A stretch of 32,000 bases of DNA from the NCBI GenBank assembly GCA_046497275.1, contig JAWOFX010000064.1, positions 12,447 to 44,446 of the forward strand, written 5' to 3'. The position numbers were made by a program, and so were the translations under genes. This document shows, in pieces, positions 4,476 through 27,213 of this stretch (positions are counted from its first letter, which is position 1; every line of letters begins with the position of its first letter). The notes below the pieces were generated by a model that saw only the letters and a program-made list of their open reading frames with translations, had not been told where the DNA came from and made no database searches. The DNA comes from Promethearchaeia archaeon (GTDB lineage: Archaea; Asgardarchaeota; Lokiarchaeia; Sigyniarchaeales; SOKP01).

Positions 4476-4679
4476 ATGAGAGCAAAAAAAATTGGAAAAA
4501 AAATAATTAAAAAATTAAAAGAATTTCTTTATGATAATTATGGAGGAAATCTGGTAGAATATGCTTTATTGTTGGGATTTGCCCTATTTATTTTTTTTGT
4601 GATCTTTGGGATAATATCTTCAATAATGGATTGGACTTTAGGGTTATCTAATGATTTCTTTGATCTTATTGGAGGATAA
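4476..4679 (+). CDS. Flp/Fap-like small type IV pilin
   Basis: Basic leader ending FLYDNYG, then GNLVEYALL (E+5, Y+6) and a single hydrophobic helix; 67 aa. Confidence 0.75.
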   Translation: MRAKKIGKKIIKKLKEFLYDNYGGNLVEYALLLGFALFIFFVIFGIISSIMDWTLGLSNDFFDLIGG

Positions 4680-10823: not shown

Positions 10824-12098
10824 TTAAATCTTTTTCACTCCACTTTTATTTATTTTAATCTTGAAAAATTGAGCATTTCGAAGTTCATCAATTATTTCTA
10901 AAGGATAATTGGGAAACTGAGACTTGAATCTTTGATCATCATATAAGATATCTTCCAAACTTTTTTTCCAATAATTAAATATTTGTTCCAATTTATCGGG
11001 ATTCACTAAAGCAAAAACAGATCCACCGCCGCCTGCGCCAGTAAGCTTCGCTGAATATACTTCAGGATGTTTTTGAATTAAATCTATTAAAATATTATTT
11101 GCCAAACCTATACCATATTTGAATCCAGCTCTTTCCATTATATCATTCATTATTTTTGTATTTTCTTTAAAAAATTGTCCTAATCTCTCCCAATTCTTTT
11201 CCATTATCGCAAACCGGGATTTCCATGCGATTTGTGCTAATTTTTCATAATTTTTTATGAGATTTTCATTATTAGATAAATATAGATCTCTTAATTTCTT
11301 ATGAACATTTCCACTTTCATGGATGGACCCAGAAAAACAAATAATGATCGGTAATGAGTTTATTTCGTAAATACCATCAATTCTATCATAGACAGCTAAA
11401 GGCTCATGTTTTATCTTTTTATGATATAATTTTCCGTTATAAGAGCAGAAAGATAGTCCTCCTCTGGAAATCACATAACGATCACTATAACCCGCTGTAA
11501 TCTTGAGATCTTTATCTTCAACTTTAGTACATATTTCCGCTAACGTATCTTTATTTATTGGTATATCTTTTTCTTTTAATCCATTCAATTTATTAATAAA
11601 ATTATAATATTTCGCAAGACCATATAAAAATGCAAGAATAATGGCAGAACTTCCACCTAAACCACTTTGACGAGGAATTGTCGATAAAATTCCCACTTCA
11701 AAATGATTATTTTTAATAGTTTCCCAAAATGATGAATTTGATAAAGAAATTCTATACAAAGTAGCGTAGATTAATTTTAAATCCTTAGTAAAATCCTCTT
11801 TAATTTTGTCTATGTCTTTGATCAAATCTTCAGCTTTAATGAGATTTAAGCTGAATTTGTTATTTTCTTCCAATTTATTTTCTAAAAATTCATAAATTTT
11901 AATTTTACTCTTATCGGTTCTTTCTTTAATATATAAAAAAACAGATAAAGGATTATACTTCCCTTCAATTGCTACGGCAGGCATCCAATAATCTGCCTCA
12001 ACAGCATCTAAAGGATTAATTAAGTTAATTCTAGCAGGTGCTTGAACAATTAAATCGGCTTTCAAATTCCTAAATGAATTTATTATAAAGCGATACAT
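10824..12098 (-). CDS. GHMP-family sugar kinase (glucuronokinase/HddA-like)
   Basis: PRQSGLGGSSA (motif II), AKLTGAGGGG (motif III) and N-terminal PARINLINPLD. Confidence 0.85.
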   Translation of the reverse strand: MYRFIINSFRNLKADLIVQAPARINLINPLDAVEADYWMPAVAIEGKYNPLSVFLYIKERTDKSKIKIYEFLENKLEENNKFSLNLIKAEDLIKDIDKIKEDFTKDLKLIYATLYRISLSNSSFWETIKNNHFEVGILSTIPRQSGLGGSSAIILAFLYGLAKYYNFINKLNGLKEKDIPINKDTLAEICTKVEDKDLKITAGYSDRYVISRGGLSFCSYNGKLYHKKIKHEPLAVYDRIDGIYEINSLPIIICFSGSIHESGNVHKKLRDLYLSNNENLIKNYEKLAQIAWKSRFAIMEKNWERLGQFFKENTKIMNDIMERAGFKYGIGLANNILIDLIQKHPEVYSAKLTGAGGGGSVFALVNPDKLEQIFNYWKKSLEDILYDDQRFKSQFPNYPLEIIDELRNAQFFKIKINKSGVKKI

Positions 12099-15010: not shown

Positions 15011-16030
15011 CTATTTACGTTGTTGACTTTCACGATTAATAAATGTTATCTCTGGAGATTTAAGACTAAAATTTTTGATTGGTCTAATTGTTTTTCTTAA
15101 TCTTATTAATCTTTTCTTTGGACCTGGAACAGATCCCAAAAGTAGTAAATAATCTCCACTGATTTTACCATAATTTATAAATCCCCCTTTAGGATTGATC
15201 TCCTCTTCATTCTCACCAATTAGCATTATTCTTTTATGATATTCAGTCCTCTGATGATATCCTAATTGTCCAGGGCGAGGAACAGTATACCTTACTCTTG
15301 CTGGATGCCATGGACCGATACATGCTACTGCCCTTCTTATCTTACTATTCTTCCTTGTAAGGAGCCTTATCCCGTGTCTCTTTACTGGCCCTTGAAAACC
15401 CTTTCCTTTTGTAACAGCTATAACATCTACTACTTCCCCCTCTATGAATACATCACGCGCCCGAACTTCTTTTCCTAATAGTTCTAAAGCAAAATTGAAT
15501 TCCTTATTAGGATCTCCAATTGAATTTAATTTTATTTCTATAATATCAGGTTTTTTTCTTGGTAATGACACTTGATATGGTTGAGATTGAAATATTCCTC
15601 TAATTTCACTTGATTGATCAATTTCCTCTAAAATTTCCTCTTTAGATTTTTGAATATCATAATTTTCAGAATTTGGAGGATTAATTTTACGAAATAAATT
15701 TTCATCTATTGTCGTTGAAAAAACTTCCCCCACAACATATTTTCCATAATCATCTTCGTTATATACTCTTATTCCAATAAGGAATAAAGGAGGTACTTCG
15801 ATAATTGTTACTGGTTTCATAAGCTCTTTTCCAAAATAAGGGCTATTTTCTTGATCCTCAATATATGTAATATGTGTCATTCCTGCCTTGAAACCTGCAA
15901 AACCAAGAAAAATTAGATCATCATTCGTATCTAACCAATTCCTAATTCTTCCTTTTATATTTGCGGCTCTTTTCCTTGGAATATATGCCAATGAACCATG
16001 TCTCGGTGCACTCTTTTTACGATGAGCCAT
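15011..16030 (-). CDS. rpl3: 50S ribosomal protein uL3
   Basis: PRHGSLAYIPRKR, GFKAGMTH, KGKGFQGPVKRHG and GQLGYHQRTE. Start placed at MAHRK. Confidence 0.97.
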   Translation of the reverse strand: MAHRKKSAPRHGSLAYIPRKRAANIKGRIRNWLDTNDDLIFLGFAGFKAGMTHITYIEDQENSPYFGKELMKPVTIIEVPPLFLIGIRVYNEDDYGKYVVGEVFSTTIDENLFRKINPPNSENYDIQKSKEEILEEIDQSSEIRGIFQSQPYQVSLPRKKPDIIEIKLNSIGDPNKEFNFALELLGKEVRARDVFIEGEVVDVIAVTKGKGFQGPVKRHGIRLLTRKNSKIRRAVACIGPWHPARVRYTVPRPGQLGYHQRTEYHKRIMLIGENEEEINPKGGFINYGKISGDYLLLLGSVPGPKKRLIRLRKTIRPIKNFSLKSPEITFINRESQQRK

Positions 16031-16193
16031 TGCTTTCACTAATCTTTTAAACTAAAAAATATTCTAAATTAAATAAATTTTTTGCTAAAACACCTTCTTA
16101 TGCCATTTTTTATATTCATAATGTCTCTATTTAACATCGATAACTTTAAAAATTTCCTTCGTAGTTTAATACTTTTCTTTTTGATATTTTAAT

Positions 16194-18335
16194 ATGATTC
16201 CAAAATCTAAAAAAACTACGAAAAGGCGAATTTCAGAACTTATTTCTTTAAATAATAAAGTTTTAAATATCTTTTGTGACAAATGTCCAAAAATAACAGA
16301 GACTTTTCTTAATGATAATTGCATTAACTGCATTTTCGAAAACTATAATAAATTTCAAAAAAAAGAAATAAAATCTATTTATTTGAATTCTTTTGATTTT
16401 TTAATAGATCGTGAGATTATAATATATTTTGAAAATTATAAAATTCTCATAAATGAGTTAAAAAGTATATTAAAGAATTTATTAAATTTTAAAACTCAGT
16501 GCAATTATAAGGATTTCAAGTGTAATATATTCATTGGATTGGAATCTCTTCTAAAAATGATAAAAAACATTCATAATCCAATTATTGTTTATAAGGAAAT
16601 TATTAAATATGAATCTGAAATCAATCATCTTGAGATTAAGAATTATTGTAAGGAATGCTTTCAAAAAATTAAAACTAATATTAGTTTGATTAAGAAAAAA
16701 ATAGCAAAATTAGAAGTAATTAAAAAATATAAGAATTACAGTTTGAAAAAGGATCTTTATGCAGAATGCAATAATTTTTATGATTTTTTATTCACTAAAT
16801 TGGTTAAATCGACAGATATCAAATCAAAAAAATCGGTAAAAGATGTAAATAAAAAATTAATTCAAAACTATAAAATTCAAAAATATGGCATTTACAAAAT
16901 TTTTATTTATGAACTTGAAAATGAAATCGAAAAAAGATATGTTTATAAAAAATATTACAAAGAAACAATAAATCAAGATTACTTCAATAAAATCTTAATT
17001 TATACATATGAAAATTTAGAGTTAATAAGGTTGAATCAAATCGTATCTATTGAAAATTTAATAAATTCATACTATTTTAAAGCGATAAAAAAAATCGATG
17101 AAAAATTTAAGATTTCGAATAATGATAAAAAAAAGATAGCCTTATTAGTTGCGATAAAGATTCTAAACCTCAATAAGATCTTTGCTCTGCTATTAGACGA
17201 TTATATAGAGGAAATCTTTCTAGACTCTCCCTATGATAAAATATATATAAATCATAAAATCTTTGGGAGATGCAGAACATTAATAGATTTTACTGGAAAT
17301 GAAATTGAAAGAATTAAAACATTTCTTAGATTATATAGTGGGAAGAGACTTGATTATTCTAATCCAAACATAAAATTTGTGCTTAGCAATAAATTTTTTT
17401 ATTGTAGATTTGCTTGTGATATTGCACCCATAAATTTTAATAATTTTTCACTTGACATAAGAAAATTAAACAAAAACATTTTTACAATCCAAGATCTTTT
17501 ATGTAACAAGACACTTAGTCCTAAAATTGCCTCTTTTCTCTATTATTGTATATTAAAAAAAATAAACATAACTGTTACGGGGAAAACGGACTCAGGTAAA
17601 ACCACACTAATAAATTCTTTAGATTTATTAACACCGAAAGAATTTAGGAAAATATATATCGAAAATGCAATCGAATCTCTTGATCAATATCATCTTGGAA
17701 AACATCAATTAAAATTTGAGGTTGACAGCTTATCTGAAGAAAATGATATAAATAAAAAGAAAAGTGGTCAAATTAAAAAATTATTGCATAGAACACCAGA
17801 TATAATTTATTTGGGAGAGATTTTAACTCAAGAAGAATGTCATGCTATGTTTCATTGTTTAACAGTCGGATTAAAAGGATTTCAAACCATTCATTCTAAT
17901 GGTATAGACTCATTAATTAATAGGTTTCTTTTTCATTTTCAGGTTGAAAAAGAATGTTTAAATGATTTAGATATAATCATTCTTATGGGGAAAGATAATA
18001 ATAATCGGCGGAAAATATTATCAATCAATCAAGTTTATATCCTTGATAATAAAATTATCAATCAACCAATATTTCGTTATAATTCAGAATCTGATTCTTG
18101 GATTCAGTTAAAATCATTGTTTAATTTAAAATGTGTTGAGAAAGTTAATGAATTTGAAAATATTAGTAAAGAAAATTTCGATTTTTTTATAAAAACTTAT
18201 GAAGATTTCTTTGAACATTTGAAAAAAAGTGAAAAGAGACTAGTATTTAATCTTGTAAAATTTTTTGATAAAATTTCCTTTCTATCAAAATTAGGGTTAA
18301 AAAATTTGGCCAATTTTAGAGATTCTATAATATAA
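16194..18335 (+). CDS. Type II/IV secretion/pilus ATPase (TadA/PilB/VirB11 family) with Cys-rich N-terminal extension
   Basis: Walker A GKTDSGKTT, Asp-box-like IENAIE, Walker B RTPDIIYLGE, His box TIHSN, and DDYIEEIFLD. Confidence 0.9.
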   Translation: MIPKSKKTTKRRISELISLNNKVLNIFCDKCPKITETFLNDNCINCIFENYNKFQKKEIKSIYLNSFDFLIDREIIIYFENYKILINELKSILKNLLNFKTQCNYKDFKCNIFIGLESLLKMIKNIHNPIIVYKEIIKYESEINHLEIKNYCKECFQKIKTNISLIKKKIAKLEVIKKYKNYSLKKDLYAECNNFYDFLFTKLVKSTDIKSKKSVKDVNKKLIQNYKIQKYGIYKIFIYELENEIEKRYVYKKYYKETINQDYFNKILIYTYENLELIRLNQIVSIENLINSYYFKAIKKIDEKFKISNNDKKKIALLVAIKILNLNKIFALLLDDYIEEIFLDSPYDKIYINHKIFGRCRTLIDFTGNEIERIKTFLRLYSGKRLDYSNPNIKFVLSNKFFYCRFACDIAPINFNNFSLDIRKLNKNIFTIQDLLCNKTLSPKIASFLYYCILKKINITVTGKTDSGKTTLINSLDLLTPKEFRKIYIENAIESLDQYHLGKHQLKFEVDSLSEENDINKKKSGQIKKLLHRTPDIIYLGEILTQEECHAMFHCLTVGLKGFQTIHSNGIDSLINRFLFHFQVEKECLNDLDIIILMGKDNNNRRKILSINQVYILDNKIINQPIFRYNSESDSWIQLKSLFNLKCVEKVNEFENISKENFDFFIKTYEDFFEHLKKSEKRLVFNLVKFFDKISFLSKLGLKNLANFRDSII

Positions 18336-18387
18336 GCTTAAACCAAAAAATTGAGTAATTTAAAACTATAGAATTAAAAAGATATTT

Positions 18388-18798
18388 GTGACTAATTTAA
18401 TAGAAAAAATATTAATTACAGGATTTGGGATCTTATTGCTAATCTCATTTCTGACAATAATTAATCCATTTATTGATCTTTTTGCTAGATATGATTTTTA
18501 TCAAGAAAAATATGAAAAAACAATCGATAATATAAATTTAATAGACTCATCAATTAGGTATTCTATTAACCAAAATAGGAATTACTGCCAGGAAATATCT
18601 ATTTATCAGGATCTAAACGTTTCTATTGAAAAAATTCAGATAAAGTATGAATTTTTCATTAATAAAATAGATAATCTAGTTTTAACCTATGATAGAAAGA
18701 TGATTGATGGATTCTATTTATTACATTCTCAGAGCAATTACCTACTTAATATTACTTTTTTAACTTCCATATTAATAAAATTCCAAATTTTGGAATGA
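18388..18798 (+). CDS. Single-pass membrane protein, candidate minor pilin
   Basis: GTG start; MTNLIEK followed by a hydrophobic helix; lies between the ATPase and platform genes. Confidence 0.7.
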   Translation: MTNLIEKILITGFGILLLISFLTIINPFIDLFARYDFYQEKYEKTIDNINLIDSSIRYSINQNRNYCQEISIYQDLNVSIEKIQIKYEFFINKIDNLVLTYDRKMIDGFYLLHSQSNYLLNITFLTSILIKFQILE

Positions 18799-18802
18799 TC
18801 CT

Positions 18803-20329
18803 ATGAAATTTCTCGATTTTTATTTGTATATATGTAAATTATGCAGCCACAGGAAGATCCCACAAATTAAATTTAAGGAAAAAGAAGATCTATTTAATAA
18901 AATATTTAAATTATCTTACGGAATCGATAATAAAGAAATAAATAAAGCTTCTTTTTTAATTTTTGTTTTAACATTACTTCTAATAATTTCCTCAGCTATT
19001 TTAATAAATTTTAATTTTTATTTATTACTTTTTTTTTCTCTAATTCTCTCTCTTATCATATCTTATAAATTTAATTTTTATCTTTATAACAAACTTTTAA
19101 AGAGAGGTAAAGAATTAACTTCCTCTCTCTATATTATTAAAATCGATTACTCATTAATTCAGATAACAAAAAATAAATATGAAGACACGATTTTGGAATT
19201 TATTACATTAATAATATCTTATAATCTTCCTATTTCTAAGAAATTTGAAGAAATATTATCTAACATTCATTCTGGCAGCCCTCCTGATATGGAACTCAAG
19301 AAACTTCTTTCTCCCTCTATTGATTTTAATAATTTTAAAAATAATATCATTATACAAAAAGATCATCCTATCTTAGAAAAAAAAGAATTTAAAAATAGCA
19401 AACTTGAGGATGATTTTAAGGTTTATCTAAGAGAATTGAATACTAAGATTAGTATAATTTTCTTCATTGGAATATTTTATCCAATTGGATTATGTTTCCT
19501 TGTAACTTTTATTAGCTTTAATCAGTTAATACTAATAGCATCTGTACCCCTTTTCCTTTTACTTTTAAATTATCTATTTCGAAAATTTATCGCCATCGAT
19601 CATTATTTAATGGGATTAATTAAAAATAATAAAAAATCAGAAAAAACAGAATTTAATGAAATATTAAGTTTAATAAAAAGCTTCTCCTATTATTTGGAAA
19701 ACAATTTATCGCCGGAAAGGGCATTTTTGAAAGCATATCTTGATAAAAACGAGCATATTTTAATCTTAGAAAGAAGAGTCCCTGAAATCCAATTATTTTT
19801 AAATGGATCCTTACAATTTATCGAATTGATGAATATTTTCAGTAAAAAAATGAGTTCTTATAGATTTAAGATAATTTTCAATTCTATATCTAAAATGGTT
19901 AAAGAAAATTCAAAAATGAGTTCGGAAAAAATTAAAGATATACTAAAAGTTTTGAATAAACATCTAAAACTTGAAAAGAAAATAACAATGAAAATTAAAG
20001 CAGAAAGCATTAAAGTTTATATCTTCATTTTTATACTCCCGATTATATTAGGAACACTTGGAGCTCTAATGAGCTTCCTACCTTATATAATGATTGATCT
20101 TTTAGAAATTAATGAAATTAATGAAATTTTATATCTTAATCTTAATTTTAGGTTTTACGATCTTTTAATCTTCTTACTGATTTTATTATCGAGCAATTTT
20201 ATCTCCACTTATTATTTTTTAGCTACTATCTCATTAAAAAATAAGAAATTATTATTAATTATAGGAGAAATTTTACTAATTATATGCTTTTTAATTTCAA
20301 TTACTAATATTCTCCCTCTAATCGGATAA
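18803..20329 (+). CDS. TadB/TadC (PilC/GspF-like) membrane platform protein, duplicated halves
   Basis: Two TM-cytoplasmic-TM modules (ILSNIHSGSPPDMELKKL; SYYLENNLSPERAF) downstream of the secretion ATPase. Confidence 0.75.
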   Translation: MKFLDFYLYICKLCSHRKIPQIKFKEKEDLFNKIFKLSYGIDNKEINKASFLIFVLTLLLIISSAILINFNFYLLLFFSLILSLIISYKFNFYLYNKLLKRGKELTSSLYIIKIDYSLIQITKNKYEDTILEFITLIISYNLPISKKFEEILSNIHSGSPPDMELKKLLSPSIDFNNFKNNIIIQKDHPILEKKEFKNSKLEDDFKVYLRELNTKISIIFFIGIFYPIGLCFLVTFISFNQLILIASVPLFLLLLNYLFRKFIAIDHYLMGLIKNNKKSEKTEFNEILSLIKSFSYYLENNLSPERAFLKAYLDKNEHILILERRVPEIQLFLNGSLQFIELMNIFSKKMSSYRFKIIFNSISKMVKENSKMSSEKIKDILKVLNKHLKLEKKITMKIKAESIKVYIFIFILPIILGTLGALMSFLPYIMIDLLEINEINEILYLNLNFRFYDLLIFLLILLSSNFISTYYFLATISLKNKKLLLIIGEILLIICFLISITNILPLIG

Positions 20330-20334
20330 TTATT

Positions 20335-20631
20335 CTAAGAAAAGAAGAACGAAACTATTAATTCGATAAATAATATAATTCCGATTAATATCACTATAAA
20401 AATCGTAAATTTACTGATAATGATTAAAGTTTCTTTTCCAAATATTTCATTATATTCTATCACTAGACTTATATTATATAGAACAACGAATAATGGAATT
20501 ATTAATAATGAGTAAATTGAAAAGCTGACCGTGCTAGCTAATGAATCAGAAGAGAGTATGCAGAAAATTAATACTATTATAAAAATTGAAATAATTATTG
20601 TTAACTGAATTAGAAGATAATCACATAACAT
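20335..20631 (-). CDS. Small hypothetical membrane protein (about 3 TM)
   Basis: 98-aa hydrophobic ORF convergent with the platform gene. Confidence 0.6.
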   Translation of the reverse strand: MLCDYLLIQLTIIISIFIIVLIFCILSSDSLASTVSFSIYSLLIIPLFVVLYNISLVIEYNEIFGKETLIIISKFTIFIVILIGIILFIELIVSFFFS

Positions 20632-20782: not shown

Positions 20783-21271
20783 ATGAAAAATCTTAAATTA
20801 AAAGGATTGAAATATAATAAAGGAAAATACAATTTATATAATGATAGATTTGTTTTTTTTCCCCCCAAATTAATTAATGTTTTATCATCAATTTACGGAG
20901 AAGGAGTAAAATCTTTACTAGTATGGTTAGGAAAAAAAGCAGGATGGACCTTAATCCATGAATGGGAATCTGAATTTGAACCGAAAAATCTAGAGGATTT
21001 AGTGAGTCAATTTACAGAAATTATAAATCATCAGGGATGGGGGAATTTTGAAATATCAAATGTTTCAGAAAATTCGATTATTTTTGAGCTTCATCATAAT
21101 GTTTCTTCTCATCTCGATAGCGAATCAAAATATATTTGTTATTTTATAAATGGTTTGTTGACGGGTTTTGGAGAATATGCCCTATATAGAGTTAAAACCT
21201 CTGAATCTAAATGTATCTTTGAAGACCCGGATAATGATTTTTGTGAATTTAAAATTAATAAAATAGAATAA
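20783..21271 (+). CDS. V4R-domain protein
   Basis: LGKKAG, GWGNFE, ICYFINGLLTG and ESKC...CEF pattern with three Cys. Confidence 0.9.
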   Translation: MKNLKLKGLKYNKGKYNLYNDRFVFFPPKLINVLSSIYGEGVKSLLVWLGKKAGWTLIHEWESEFEPKNLEDLVSQFTEIINHQGWGNFEISNVSENSIIFELHHNVSSHLDSESKYICYFINGLLTGFGEYALYRVKTSESKCIFEDPDNDFCEFKINKIE

Positions 21272-22214: not shown

Positions 22215-22877
22215 TTATTTAAATCCCAATAAAATTAAAAAAGTAATAAATGAGAAAGAAATTACTAATATTAATGGAATTCGATCCAATATAAAAATTT
22301 GGAGTTTAATATCATTAAAATTAAAAACAATGTTATTATAGATAATTTTTCTCCTTTTATTATCAGATATTTTTAAATCCGATAAATTTTTTAATCCATA
22401 AGAGCTTAGGAAAAATATTTTTTGCAAGATTGAATTTCGCTTAATTTCGGGTAATATGAAATTAAATAATATATATTTTTTACTGATTCTATTCCCAAAT
22501 AATTTTAATAAATGATATAAATTGAAATAGAACGAAAATATAAAAAAGAACAAAAATATGCTTAGAAGGTTTAAATTAGATGAATTTAACATTATAAATG
22601 AAATAAGGATTACTTTACCATCTCCCCCACCTATAATCTTTAAACAATAGAATAAAAAAATTATTGAAAAGAAAATAAAGAAAATTATTGTTTTTATTAG
22701 AAAAAATTTTAAAATATCCAAATAGCAATATTTAAATTCAAAAAAATTATTTAAAATCATAAAAAAAAAGAATAATTTAAAAAAATTAGGACTTAAGTAG
22801 CGTTTCTTCAAATCTAAATAAGAAAAGATGGAAAGAAAACCTATTATTGAAAAATAATTAAATAAAATAAAGCAAAT
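22215..22877 (-). CDS. Prepilin peptidase (A24 family), N-terminus extended to a putative ATT start
   Basis: GGGDGK motif and C-terminal RIPLILVI. The in-frame upstream extension supplies TM1 and the first catalytic Asp (SYLDLKKRYLSPN). Confidence 0.85.
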   Translation of the reverse strand: MCFILFNYFSIIGFLSIFSYLDLKKRYLSPNFFKLFFFFMILNNFFEFKYCYLDILKFFLIKTIIFFIFFSIIFLFYCLKIIGGGDGKVILISFIMLNSSNLNLLSIFLFFFIFSFYFNLYHLLKLFGNRISKKYILFNFILPEIKRNSILQKIFFLSSYGLKNLSDLKISDNKRRKIIYNNIVFNFNDIKLQIFILDRIPLILVISFSFITFLILLGFK

Positions 22878-22878
22878 C

Positions 22879-23169
22879 TTACTTTTCCTCCCAAATTTTT
22901 AAAAAATTTTTAAAACTTCTTGCTTTTATATTTTCCTCTTTAAAACGGTAAATCCGAATGCGTCCAAAATTTTTTTGTTGTACAAGATCAACTTTTTTAA
23001 GATATTTTAAATGTTTATCAACATTTTTATGATTTAGATTTGTTTTTTTGATTATAGCGGATATATTAAGTTCTGTTTTGAAAGCTAAAAGCTTTAATAT
23101 TTTAACTCTCGCACGAGATCCTAATAAATTTTCAATTAATTTTCCATTTTTAAGTTTCTCTTCATTCAT
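22879..23169 (-). CDS. ArsR-like winged-helix protein
   Basis: LGSRARVKILKLL...LNISAI...HLKYLKKVDLV...GRIRIY; ATGA overlap with the cdc6 stop. Confidence 0.85.
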   Translation of the reverse strand: MNEEKLKNGKLIENLLGSRARVKILKLLAFKTELNISAIIKKTNLNHKNVDKHLKYLKKVDLVQQKNFGRIRIYRFKEENIKARSFKNFLKIWEEK

Positions 23170-24371
23170 AAAGCTATCTCACTCTCCTTCAACTTATTTA
23201 AGATTTGAATCTCAAGCTTTTTTAAAGGCATTTCTTGTATTTTTATAAGGGATTTCCTTCCCGAAATATTTTTACTCTTTATTGAGACTGTAATTATACC
23301 ATCTCTGTTGAAATCATTGAGATAATTCCATATTTGAGAATAAGATTTAGGTTTTTTATTTGCGTTCTCACATATTAAGTAATATTCATTAATTATGTTT
23401 GAGACACTGACTGCCACTTTGTTGGAATTTTTTAATGTTCGTAAAATCGATAATAAAAATAGAGATTTATTCAAATTCATATATTTAAGAATATCATTAA
23501 CCGAATAAGGAACAATTTCTTGATTTGCTAATCTAATTATCTCAGGGGTTAGAAACCGAAGATCTTTACTCTCTGCTATTTTACATGATTTCCATAATAT
23601 ATTAAGACCGTAGCGTATATCTCCTTTTTCAAATACAATTTCAGCCAAACTTTTTAAAATCTCGTCAGAAATCACATCCTTTTTCAAACTCAAAGAGGAT
23701 CTATATTTAAGTATATGTTTTATTTGATCTTTTGAATATGTATCAAATTTTATTATGTTTCTTTGTAAAGTACTCAATGTACTATTATCTAAATTATTTA
23801 GAAAGGAAATATCTCTAACTATTCCAATAAGAGATAGTCTCTGAGGACTATTATATGAATCGTCATACATTCTAGTTAGGGAGTAAATCAAATCCTCCTC
23901 CTTGTTTATTAGATAATTTAATTCATCAAGAACTAATATAATATGCAAATTCTGATTGTGAACTACTTTTTTTATTATTTCTAAAAGATCTTGTGGAGAA
24001 TATCCTCTTTTTGGAAAATCTTTTTTTAATTGTCCGATAATACTAATTAAAACTTTATAGCTGGTTCTCTCTTTCCTACAATTAATATGGATATATTTAA
24101 TATTAATTTCTCTTTTAAACGCAGCCTCTATTATTATATTCCCGAATTGCCTAACCGTTGCTGTTTTACCAATTCCCGTTTTTCCGGTTATTAGTAATTT
24201 TCTTGATATCGAATTTGGTTGGGTTATTAATGAGGAGAAAAGTTGCGATAATAAAGATAATTCTTTTTCTCTATGTGGTAATCTTTCAGGAATGTAATTT
24301 ATATCTAATTTATATTCTGCTTTAAATAAGCTTGGTTTTCCTAACAGTTTTTCAAAATAATTGTAAGACAT
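23166..24371 (-). CDS. cdc6: Cdc6/Orc1 replication initiator
   Basis: YIPERLPHRE, Walker A GKTGIGKT, Walker B LVLDE, GDIR sensor and a C-terminal winged helix. Confidence 0.95.
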   Translation of the reverse strand: MSYNYFEKLLGKPSLFKAEYKLDINYIPERLPHREKELSLLSQLFSSLITQPNSISRKLLITGKTGIGKTATVRQFGNIIIEAAFKREINIKYIHINCRKERTSYKVLISIIGQLKKDFPKRGYSPQDLLEIIKKVVHNQNLHIILVLDELNYLINKEEDLIYSLTRMYDDSYNSPQRLSLIGIVRDISFLNNLDNSTLSTLQRNIIKFDTYSKDQIKHILKYRSSLSLKKDVISDEILKSLAEIVFEKGDIRYGLNILWKSCKIAESKDLRFLTPEIIRLANQEIVPYSVNDILKYMNLNKSLFLLSILRTLKNSNKVAVSVSNIINEYYLICENANKKPKSYSQIWNYLNDFNRDGIITVSIKSKNISGRKSLIKIQEMPLKKLEIQILNKLKESEIAL

Positions 24372-26196: not shown

Positions 26197-27213
26197 TTAC
26201 TTTATAAAAATAGGTTTAAGCAAATTCACATAATGATCCCTAATTGAGTATTCTGCAATTTTTGTAGATTCAGCTATAAGTTTTTGCGTCAGGACGGATT
26301 TTTGTTTGTATCTTTTTGCTAATAATTTATCAGCGAGATATATAACTGCCCCTGCTAAAATAAATGGATTTCTACCAGCTCTTTTCCACATACTTAAGTT
26401 TTTTAGTATGGACATAGACATATTCATTAAATGGATTTGAAATTCTTTTTTAGACCAATTAATTCCCTTTTTACATAATCTTTTTGTAAGATTTTTATGA
26501 TTTATTATTTGATTCACCAGTCGATTTAAATAGTCTTCACTTTTATGAGGTTTAGTTTTTATATCTAAGAATTTTTTGTATTTTAAACCGTCTCTTAACA
26601 TCAATCTTGGATTAACCCTATGACCGAATTTTTGAAATGCATTTGAAATTTCATTAATAGTTATAGGAGCATTATGGTTTTCTTCTCTCGCAGCTAAAAA
26701 TATGCAAAATGCTATTAAAGATATGTTATTTATGATTTCATTGTCATTTTTTATTATTTTTTTATAATAGTATGCTGCATTATTTCGAATATTTTTATTT
26801 AAATCTAAATAAATTGATATTTTATTTAATATATTAAAAATTCTATATTCTGTTTCATGATTTTTAATTCGAAGAAATTTCGAATAATTCTTTTTTAACC
26901 GACGATAAAGTCTTTGATCATTCGGAGATAGAAGATTTCCAGATTTATCTTTAAAAAATTTAGTTTTTTCATATCCAATAAAAGATCCTAATCCCCCTAC
27001 AAAATCTGTCCTATTTCCTAATGCTACATATTGTTTCGATAAATTATTATTTCTACTGTCTGTTTTAAAACTATAAGATGAATCCTTAAATATTTTATCA
27101 ATCACCAAACCACAGGCACCACATACAATTTCTCTACTCTTAATTATCGTTGATCCACCACATTCGGGACAAATGCCCTCAACTGAAGTATTATATATTA
27201 TTTTTTCATTCAT
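26197..27213 (-). CDS. Divergent TFB/TFIIB-family paralogue
   Basis: CPECGG...CGACG Zn ribbon, cyclin folds (LIAFCIFLAAR; GRNPFILAGAVIY), C-terminal TQKLIAE...IRDHY. Confidence 0.85.
   Translation of the reverse strand: MNEKIIYNTSVEGICPECGGSTIIKSREIVCGACGLVIDKIFKDSSYSFKTDSRNNNLSKQYVALGNRTDFVGGLGSFIGYEKTKFFKDKSGNLLSPNDQRLYRRLKKNYSKFLRIKNHETEYRIFNILNKISIYLDLNKNIRNNAAYYYKKIIKNDNEIINNISLIAFCIFLAAREENHNAPITINEISNAFQKFGHRVNPRLMLRDGLKYKKFLDIKTKPHKSEDYLNRLVNQIINHKNLTKRLCKKGINWSKKEFQIHLMNMSMSILKNLSMWKRAGRNPFILAGAVIYLADKLLAKRYKQKSVLTQKLIAESTKIAEYSIRDHYVNLLKPIFIK

Follow-up and report, generated by a model that had tools for sequence, protein, structure and literature searches.

The stretch of DNA considered here (the window) comprises 32,000 nucleotides from a Promethearchaeia archaeon (NCBI GenBank assembly GCA_046497275.1, contig JAWOFX010000064.1, positions 12,447 to 44,446 of the forward strand), and it holds the genes of a putative type IV filament system. 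With a GC content of 0.19-0.33 per kb the window is very rich in AT, and it belongs to a 3.85-Mb assembly that is 98.9% complete; the presence of Arf/Ras-type small GTPases, TFB, Cdc6 and a class I LysRS shows that it is archaeal and Asgard-like, and the nearest relatives of its proteins carry the public labels Lokiarchaeota or Promethearchaeota. At 16194..18335 (+) lies the gene for a type IV filament secretion ATPase of 713 amino acids (aa), divergent from rpl3 (15011-16039, -) with 154 nucleotides between them, and it is followed on the same strand by genes for a leaderless pilin-shaped protein of 136 aa (18388..18798) and a platform protein of 508 aa (18803..20329). Further away we found a Flp-like prepilin of 67 aa (4476..4679, +), a short A24 (prepilin/class III signal) aspartic peptidase as an open frame at 22215..22898 (-) and a divergent TFB/TFIIB paralogue of 338 aa (26197..27213, -), so that prepilin, ATPase operon, peptidase and TFB paralogue are dispersed over a 23-kb block with conserved gene order. 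A preliminary description of this DNA had listed the ATPase cluster divergent from rpl3, the pilin-like and platform genes, the Flp-like gene and the A24 gene, and every one of them is present where it was placed; as to its view that ATPase, platform, pilin and peptidase make up the minimal type IV filament kit, all four parts were found, although the TFB paralogue had been overlooked.

The ATPase was identified by its match to Pfam T2SSE, by its motifs and by its position in a phylogenetic tree. The T2SSE match covers residues 389-579 (E 1.2e-13, 50.9 bits, cut-off 24.9). The top NCBIfam match was the FlaI model (E 4.7e-26), with 91.6 bits against a cut-off of 550, and since the same model gives 394-435 bits for conventional Asgard paralogues, 596 for a true Asgard FlaI, 354 for Nanopusillus and 342 for Sulfolobales, the ATPase must be regarded as very divergent. 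TIGR03819 (TadA/CpaF) gave 63.7 bits against a cut-off of 373. The catalytic residues are nevertheless kept: Walker A (G-x4-G-K-T-T), the Asp-box Glu490 and Glu494, the Walker B residues Asp536 and Glu542 and the His-box residues Thr565 and His567 are invariant in 17 aligned ATPases of the family. Among solved structures, Archaeoglobus GspE (E 7.6e-27) and Sulfolobus FlaI (8e-22) come closest, CpaF being much weaker (1.8e-10). In front of the catalytic part there is an N-terminal extension of about 280 aa with eight cysteines in four pairs (CxxC..CxxC, C..C, CxxC), which are conserved across the window's family; a feature search of the ESM Atlas with residues 1-290 gave no lead above 0.9 and found no relatives. 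This is the sole pilus-type secretion ATPase of the nearly complete genome. The only further T2SSE match in the genome is to a 551-aa protein (contig C168) whose unrelated gene neighbours include neither a platform nor a pilin gene, and we set it aside as a putative PilT/PIN-type ATPase, a label of our own making. Two further observations concern the ATPase sequences at large. Relatives of the ATPase carry the precomputed Pfam match PF27713 ('UCP018868'), and in five genomes of one Asgard family (f5) the matches to module ATPases contain one to four in-frame stops (TGA, TAA, TAG), which could reflect pseudogenes, introns or recoding.

The platform protein was recognized by a weak T2SSF match, by profile alignment (hhalign) and by structural matches. 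A search across 1.84 billion representative proteins gave 104 relatives, nearly all of about 500 aa, and seven of 37 relatives touch T2SSF (best E 1.1e-5). The decisive comparison was with an Odin-like genome of 1.4 Mb, where two adjoining genes of 283 and 244 aa correspond to residues 35-271 and 282-503 of the platform, respectively (hhalign probability 98.8 and 99.0), and where the 283-aa half passes the Pfam T2SSF cut-off on its own (30.8 bits). The protein contains two T2SSF-type cytoplasmic helical bundles together with transmembrane helices, and its AlphaFold 2 (AF2) model (predicted local distance difference test, pLDDT, 86.9) aligned with an archaeal GspF-domain cluster of the ESM Atlas (template modelling scores 0.59/0.67 over 368 residues). 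Residues 275-400 also align with PilC, EpsF, TcpE and SpoIIIAB domains (VIA, Z 6.5-8.8), values that for helical bundles lie in a merely suggestive range. Foldseek found no match to the model in the PDB, and a profile search of PDB sequences with the platform alignment gave matches at chance level only. Judged by these alignments, the 508-aa platform is the fusion-equivalent of the TadB-like and TadC-like genes that are separate in most other Asgard lineages. The earlier reading of a double TadB/C-like component was therefore right, as its two halves are matched by two adjacent genes.

As for the subunit, the 67-aa prepilin has a lysine-rich leader of 23 aa ending in F-L-Y-D-N-Y-G (D-x-Y-G), followed by G-N-L-V-E-Y and a hydrophobic helix. 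The predicted mature pilin would thus be 44 aa long, start with G-N-L-V-E-Y, carry a glutamate at +5 and have no globular head. A scan of all open reading frames (ORFs) in the 3.85-Mb genome showed that this is the only credible ORF with an N-terminal G-x4-E-Y-hydrophobic motif. Its 70 relatives, some of which JGI annotates as 'Flp pilus assembly pilin Flp', are 52-99% identical, which makes the prepilin more conserved than the ATPase, and G24, L26, V27, E28 and Y29 are invariant among 24 of them. When more distant Asgard forms (K-G-S-P-L-V-E-E) are aligned with it, the cleavage site falls behind the first glycine, so that the glutamate is at +5. A profile search of PDB sequences with the pilin alignment gave chance-level matches only.

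The 136-aa protein encoded between ATPase and platform has few detectable relatives and matches no family. It starts with M-T-N-L-I-E-K and has no leader peptide, and removal of the initiator methionine puts a glutamate at +5. Thirteen orthologues, which come from four Asgard families, all keep M1, Glu6 and Pro27, and in a BLAST comparison the mature Flp N-terminus aligned with the orthologue at locus L007 (40% over 37 aa, E 1.9e-4). In the AF2 model (pLDDT 91.6) a helix of 60 residues at the N-terminus leads into a beta head of seven strands, which is the classical pilin outline; Foldseek returned no match to it from the PDB. A prediction of the complex of two mature pilins with the 136-aa protein scored 0.00 and gave no verdict, counting neither for nor against binding. 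In view of the pilin-type N-terminus and the model, the protein is likely a leaderless minor, priming or anchoring subunit. Elsewhere in the same genome (G000, contig C124:20848-21357, +) an ORF of 169 aa starts with M-A-N-G-K-E, continues with a hydrophobic helix and has a glutamate at +5 after the methionine; by this resemblance it may encode a second leaderless pilin-like protein.

The frame at 22215-22898 passes the Pfam A24 cut-off (32.7 bits against 26.5) only if it is read upstream of TTG 22811, and it then holds both catalytic Asp motifs, S-Y-L-D-L-K and G-G-G-D-G-K. The first of these, together with the first transmembrane helix (22812-22898, -), is located upstream of every ATG, GTG and TTG in the frame. 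The probable start, as far as the sequence tells, is an ATT at 22877, which a single base separates from the stop codon of the upstream ArsR-like gene (TAA-G-ATT). Taken together, the location of the Asp motif and of the ATT suggests non-canonical or coupled initiation. The L007 orthologue of the peptidase has a normal start.

The TFB paralogue, with its zinc ribbon and one detected cyclin repeat, is 39-46% identical (E 1e-77 to 1e-99) to TFB-like genes at five other Asgard loci (L013-L016 and L018). Such orthologues directly adjoin the module ATPase in six Asgard loci (these five and L019) and in the Thermoproteota locus L130, and on this ground the paralogue at 26197-27213 is orthologous to the ATPase-adjoining TFB and regarded as dedicated to the module.

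If these genes belong together they should be found together in other genomes, and the preliminary description had named a lack of co-occurrence as an observation that would count against it. In a sample of 201 Asgard genomes, 184 yielded the ATPase, 171 a match to the pilin profile and 171 an A24 peptidase, and the genes are genomically linked; the pilin profile also matched in 45 of 201 sampled Thermoproteota genomes. The distance between pilin and ATPase is 0.1-3 kb in most Asgard families, as exemplified by seven genomes, and about 10 kb throughout the window's own family. A gene order of about 20 kb (RLI, LysRS, GHMP kinase, S26 peptidase, L23-L4-L3 / ATPase, 136, 508, 98, V4R, ..., A24, ArsR, Cdc6) is kept in relatives in which the ATPase is only 46-50% identical. 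In a sister family (L011) the locus is compact and reads Cdc6-ArsR-A24-Flp-ATPase-134aa-platform. The Odin-like genome and four other families have the order ATPase, TadB-like, TadC-like, Flp, likewise in compact loci (L013, L014, L016 and L019 being listed), and in Thermoproteota L130 the order is TFB-ATPase-TadB-TadC-Flp. Most genomes carry one or two copies of the module, located among core genes (ribosomal operon, Cdc6, TFB). What sets the window's family apart is the fused platform, the insertion of a gene for the 136-aa protein between those of ATPase and platform, and the scattering of the parts among ribosomal, replication and transcription genes.

The relationship to other systems was analyzed in an unrooted tree of 36 ATPase sequences over 509 columns (IQ-TREE, LG+C20+F+G4), in which many rows are composition-biased. 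The bacterial TadA/CpaF and DPANN ATPases that served as outgroups were taken from a Walker A pattern scan, the sample was without Methanococcales Epd ATPases and without the named Pyrobaculum ATPases, and gene context was among the criteria by which the module group was delimited. Within this frame, the 20 module ATPases (17 Asgard, three Thermoproteota) occupied one side of a branch with 100/100 support, with seven bacterial TadA/CpaF sequences (100/99) and the conventional archaeal ATPases including FlaI (100/99) on the other; the sampled DPANN ATPases grouped with the conventional archaeal ones. The ATPase thus falls in a clade of its own, outside the characterised archaeal pilus clades that had been proposed as the alternative placement. 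The name 'Tad' given to the system earlier did not hold up as a statement of descent, since the ATPase is placed outside the TadA/CpaF clade and the pilin stays under the Pfam Flp_Fap cut-off, and on these sequences it is best used as an analogy rather than a lineage assignment.

Several neighbouring genes deserve mention. Directly after the platform gene, on the opposite strand, is a gene for a multi-transmembrane protein of 98 aa (20335..20631, -), whose membership in the system is uncertain; an ORF of about 96-100 aa occupies the same place at loci L006, L007, L011 and L020, and BLAST detected no similarity between the 98-aa protein and these ORFs at E 1e-3. It is followed by a gene for a V4R-domain (4-vinyl reductase-like) protein of 162 aa (20783-21271, +), which is 62-72% identical in relatives, has a conserved place after the platform gene in the window's order and occurs as two tandem copies in L011. 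A Cdc6/Orc1 gene overlaps an ArsR-type winged helix-turn-helix gene (22879-24371, -), and in six or more Asgard families this pair was seen within a few kb of the module ATPase (at L011, L012, L013, L018, L019 and L020 as well), so the module may lie near a replication origin across the phylum. In the Odin-like genome (L013) a ParA/MinD-type P-loop protein (11223-11888, -; Pfam ParA 2.2e-12, CbiA 4.9e-12) is encoded two genes upstream of the module ATPase, which recalls TadZ/CpaE of bacterial Tad loci.

Taken together, the sequences give good support to a reading of these genes as a minimal type IV filament kit, and our favoured explanation, which we consider probable though by no means certain, is that they constitute a complete but dispersed gene set for a type IV filament machine of an uncharacterised archaeal 'TFB + ATPase + TadB/C + mini-pilin' family. 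The analysis establishes the identities of the genes, their catalytic motifs, their co-occurrence and linkage in two phyla and a distinct clade of the ATPase; beyond this we infer cleavage at the G/G junction, formation of a filament and a role for both the 136-aa protein and the TFB. In such a machine the 67-aa prepilin would insert in the membrane, and the A24 peptidase would cut off the 23-aa leader after Gly23, leaving a 44-aa headless subunit with glutamate at +5. A hexameric ATPase would dock on the pair of cytoplasmic T2SSF bundles in the fused platform and, driven by ATP, subunits would be lifted from the membrane into a thin Flp/Epd-like filament. Priming, tipping or anchoring of the fibre could be the task of the 136-aa protein as a minor subunit, and this protein would not need the peptidase, as its pilin-type N-terminus comes right after the initiator methionine. 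Transcription of the set would be driven or tuned by the dedicated TFB paralogue. One might further imagine a role in adhesion or in contact with a syntrophic partner.

A number of observations weigh against a machine that builds a pilus. In the ATPase, the arginine that usually follows the Walker B G-E-I is replaced by leucine, and by glutamine in other families. The platform by itself gives only a weak T2SSF match (E 0.009, 16.4 bits against a cut-off of 25.2), the prepilin has no Pfam Flp_Fap (PF04964) match (five of 24 relatives match, best E 0.023, under the 32.2-bit cut-off), and for the model of the 136-aa protein the best VIA-align hits, two type IV pilins with Z 4.7 and 4.5, are not clear of unrelated coiled coils. 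The peptidase frame has no canonical start codon (no ATG, GTG or TTG upstream of TTG 22811), the A24 family PF01478 was detected in only 29 of the 40 genomes from the family of the window, and at L006 (GCA_019058365.1) the orthologue (15627-16321, -) is split by a frameshift at a T-rich run into two overlapping frames, one with the first Asp motif and the other with G-G-G-D-G-K, explicable as a mistake of assembly, as a pseudogene or as programmed frameshifting. Concerning cells, no filament of this machine has been seen; those of cultured Hodarchaeales are 15-25 nm wide and described as thicker than pili, and the cryo-electron tomography paper on L. ossiferum does not contain the words pili, pilus or archaellum. 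Finally, Makarova et al. 2016 took the association with TFB as a hint of a non-pilus, transcription-related role (PMC4858521).

There is an alternative to which we give a modest yet real chance, a functional machine without an external adhesive pilus, which could be a short pseudopilus or piston embedded in the membrane, for secretion or for translocation of DNA or protein, or else a sensor relaying its state to the TFB and so linked to transcription, along the lines of this last suggestion. The tight linkage of the TFB paralogue to the ATPase in both Asgard archaea and Thermoproteota is in line with this, and so is the operon of a Cys-rich-N-domain ATPase with a TFIIB homologue for which the transcription-related pathway was proposed (PMC4858521), as are the large Cys-rich N-domain without detectable relatives, the absence of reported pili from the L. 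ossiferum tomography and the near-universal occurrence in one or two copies amid core genes, more befitting a housekeeping function than an accessory adhesin. Against it, the conserved prepilin with cleavage motif and Glu+5, the peptidase and the pilin-shaped second protein make up precisely the equipment that assembly of a filament calls for, TFIIB homologues are plain regulators in many type IV pilus loci (PMC4858521), and the window holds no pointer to a secreted substrate or to a DNA-handling partner. The irregular peptidase, without canonical start here and frameshifted in L006, and the spread of the parts across 23 kb would instead suit a decaying remnant whose scattered components no longer cooperate, which is how a recent survey saw subsystem 4D (PMC13705601). 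However, all catalytic residues of the ATPase are invariant, the pilin is 52-99% identical across relatives, the 20-kb gene order persists where the ATPases have diverged to 46-50% identity, the module is shared with Thermoproteota, and the parts co-occur in about 85-90% of the 201 genomes and are adjacent in most families; with such constraint on the parts we hold decay to be very unlikely. A reduced archaellum, serving motility, could be invoked from the FlaI model as best NCBIfam match and from archaeal GspE and FlaI as nearest structures. This was rejected and keeps hardly any probability, given a FlaI score of 91.6 against a cut-off of 550 (596 in a true Asgard FlaI), the 100/100 branch that separates the ATPase from FlaI, a subunit that would be a 44-aa headless peptide and the finding that neither archaellin (PF01917) nor Pilin_N was matched at family cut-offs anywhere in the genome.

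A dispersed but complete filament machine would also allow a wider and much bolder view, in which this is the main, near-universal and ancestral surface filament of Asgard archaea and many members of TACK, a thin Flp-type fibre primed by the leaderless pilin, coupled in its state to transcription via the Cys-rich N-domain and the TFB, and mediating contact with partner cells. We consider this view as a whole improbable, although if true, the fibre would be the physical contact with a partner cell that models of eukaryogenesis require. Surveys have found type IV filament loci to be rare or fragmentary in Asgard archaea; in the 2026 MacSyFinder survey (PLoS Genet) ordered type IV filament loci were rare in the group, a few genomes were assigned to 4D, and this subsystem was 'likely a remnant' with scattered components that were unlikely to act together (PMC13705601). 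One paper on Helarchaeota states that those genomes lack pilus genes, and our literature search retrieved no paper that describes a Flp-like pilin linked to a 4D-type system in Asgard archaea. What is new is that the mini-pilin, the peptidase and the pilin-shaped second protein belong with the ATPase-platform-TFB set, and that this set is present in most sampled Asgard genomes. An 'unknown two-gene oddity' would thereby turn into a concrete, testable hypothesis of a surface machine, and a link to a TFB paralogue of its own is uncommon in the regulation of any type IV filament system.

Compared with known systems, the set shares with the Epd pilus of Methanococcus maripaludis ('system 1') a major pilin that lacks a head and has Glu+5, a pair of platform genes and a short peptidase of its own (PMC13705601). 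System 1 differs in its distribution, as it is reported in methanogens, Nanobdellati, deep-branching Methanobacteriati and Nitrososphaerota and not in Asgard archaea (PMC13705601), and the sampled DPANN ATPases fall outside the module clade in our tree, which holds no Methanococcales Epd ATPase. With the bacterial Tad/Flp system (type IVc) it has in common a very small pilin without a head, whose leader and mature part meet at F-x-x-D-x-x-G / x4-E-Y, an A24 peptidase of the short kind, two half-platforms (separate in most Asgard families and fused here) and, in the Odin-like genome, a ParA/MinD-like gene beside the ATPase. It differs from that system in an ATPase outside the TadA/CpaF clade (100/100) with a far weaker match to CpaF structures than to archaeal GspE or FlaI, in a pilin under the Flp_Fap cut-off, in the lack of a secretin and of Rcp/TadD-type parts, as expected for a single-membrane cell, and in having a TFB paralogue, a Cys-rich N-domain on the ATPase and a pilin-like protein that carries no leader.

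The closest resemblance in the literature is to subclade 4D, described in Pyrobaculum and Thermoproteus as one operon with an ATPase that has a small Cys-rich N-domain, a possible diverged TadC with 4-5 transmembrane segments and a TFIIB homologue (PMC4858521); according to Makarova, Koonin and Albers (2016) it has 'no potential pilins', its function is unknown and a link to transcription is possible (PMC4858521). The 4D platform was published as a protein of 4-5 transmembrane segments, whereas the one here is a single fused protein of 508 aa, and the conserved Flp-like prepilin, the peptidase and the pilin-shaped second protein set the present system apart from a subclade published as pilin-less. 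The published 4D ATPase is described as being without a C-terminal domain. In both, an ATPase with an extra Cys-bearing N-domain is combined with one or more highly diverged TadC-like proteins and with a TFIIB/TFB homologue in or near the operon, here with one detected cyclin repeat, and the ATPase groups at 100/100 with Thermoproteota TFB-ATPase-TadB/C-Flp modules, named members of arCOG05558 being compared by description only. The system is thus not peculiar to the genome of the window or to Lokiarchaeia, but is an Asgard- and TACK-wide module that fits the published description of subclade 4D.

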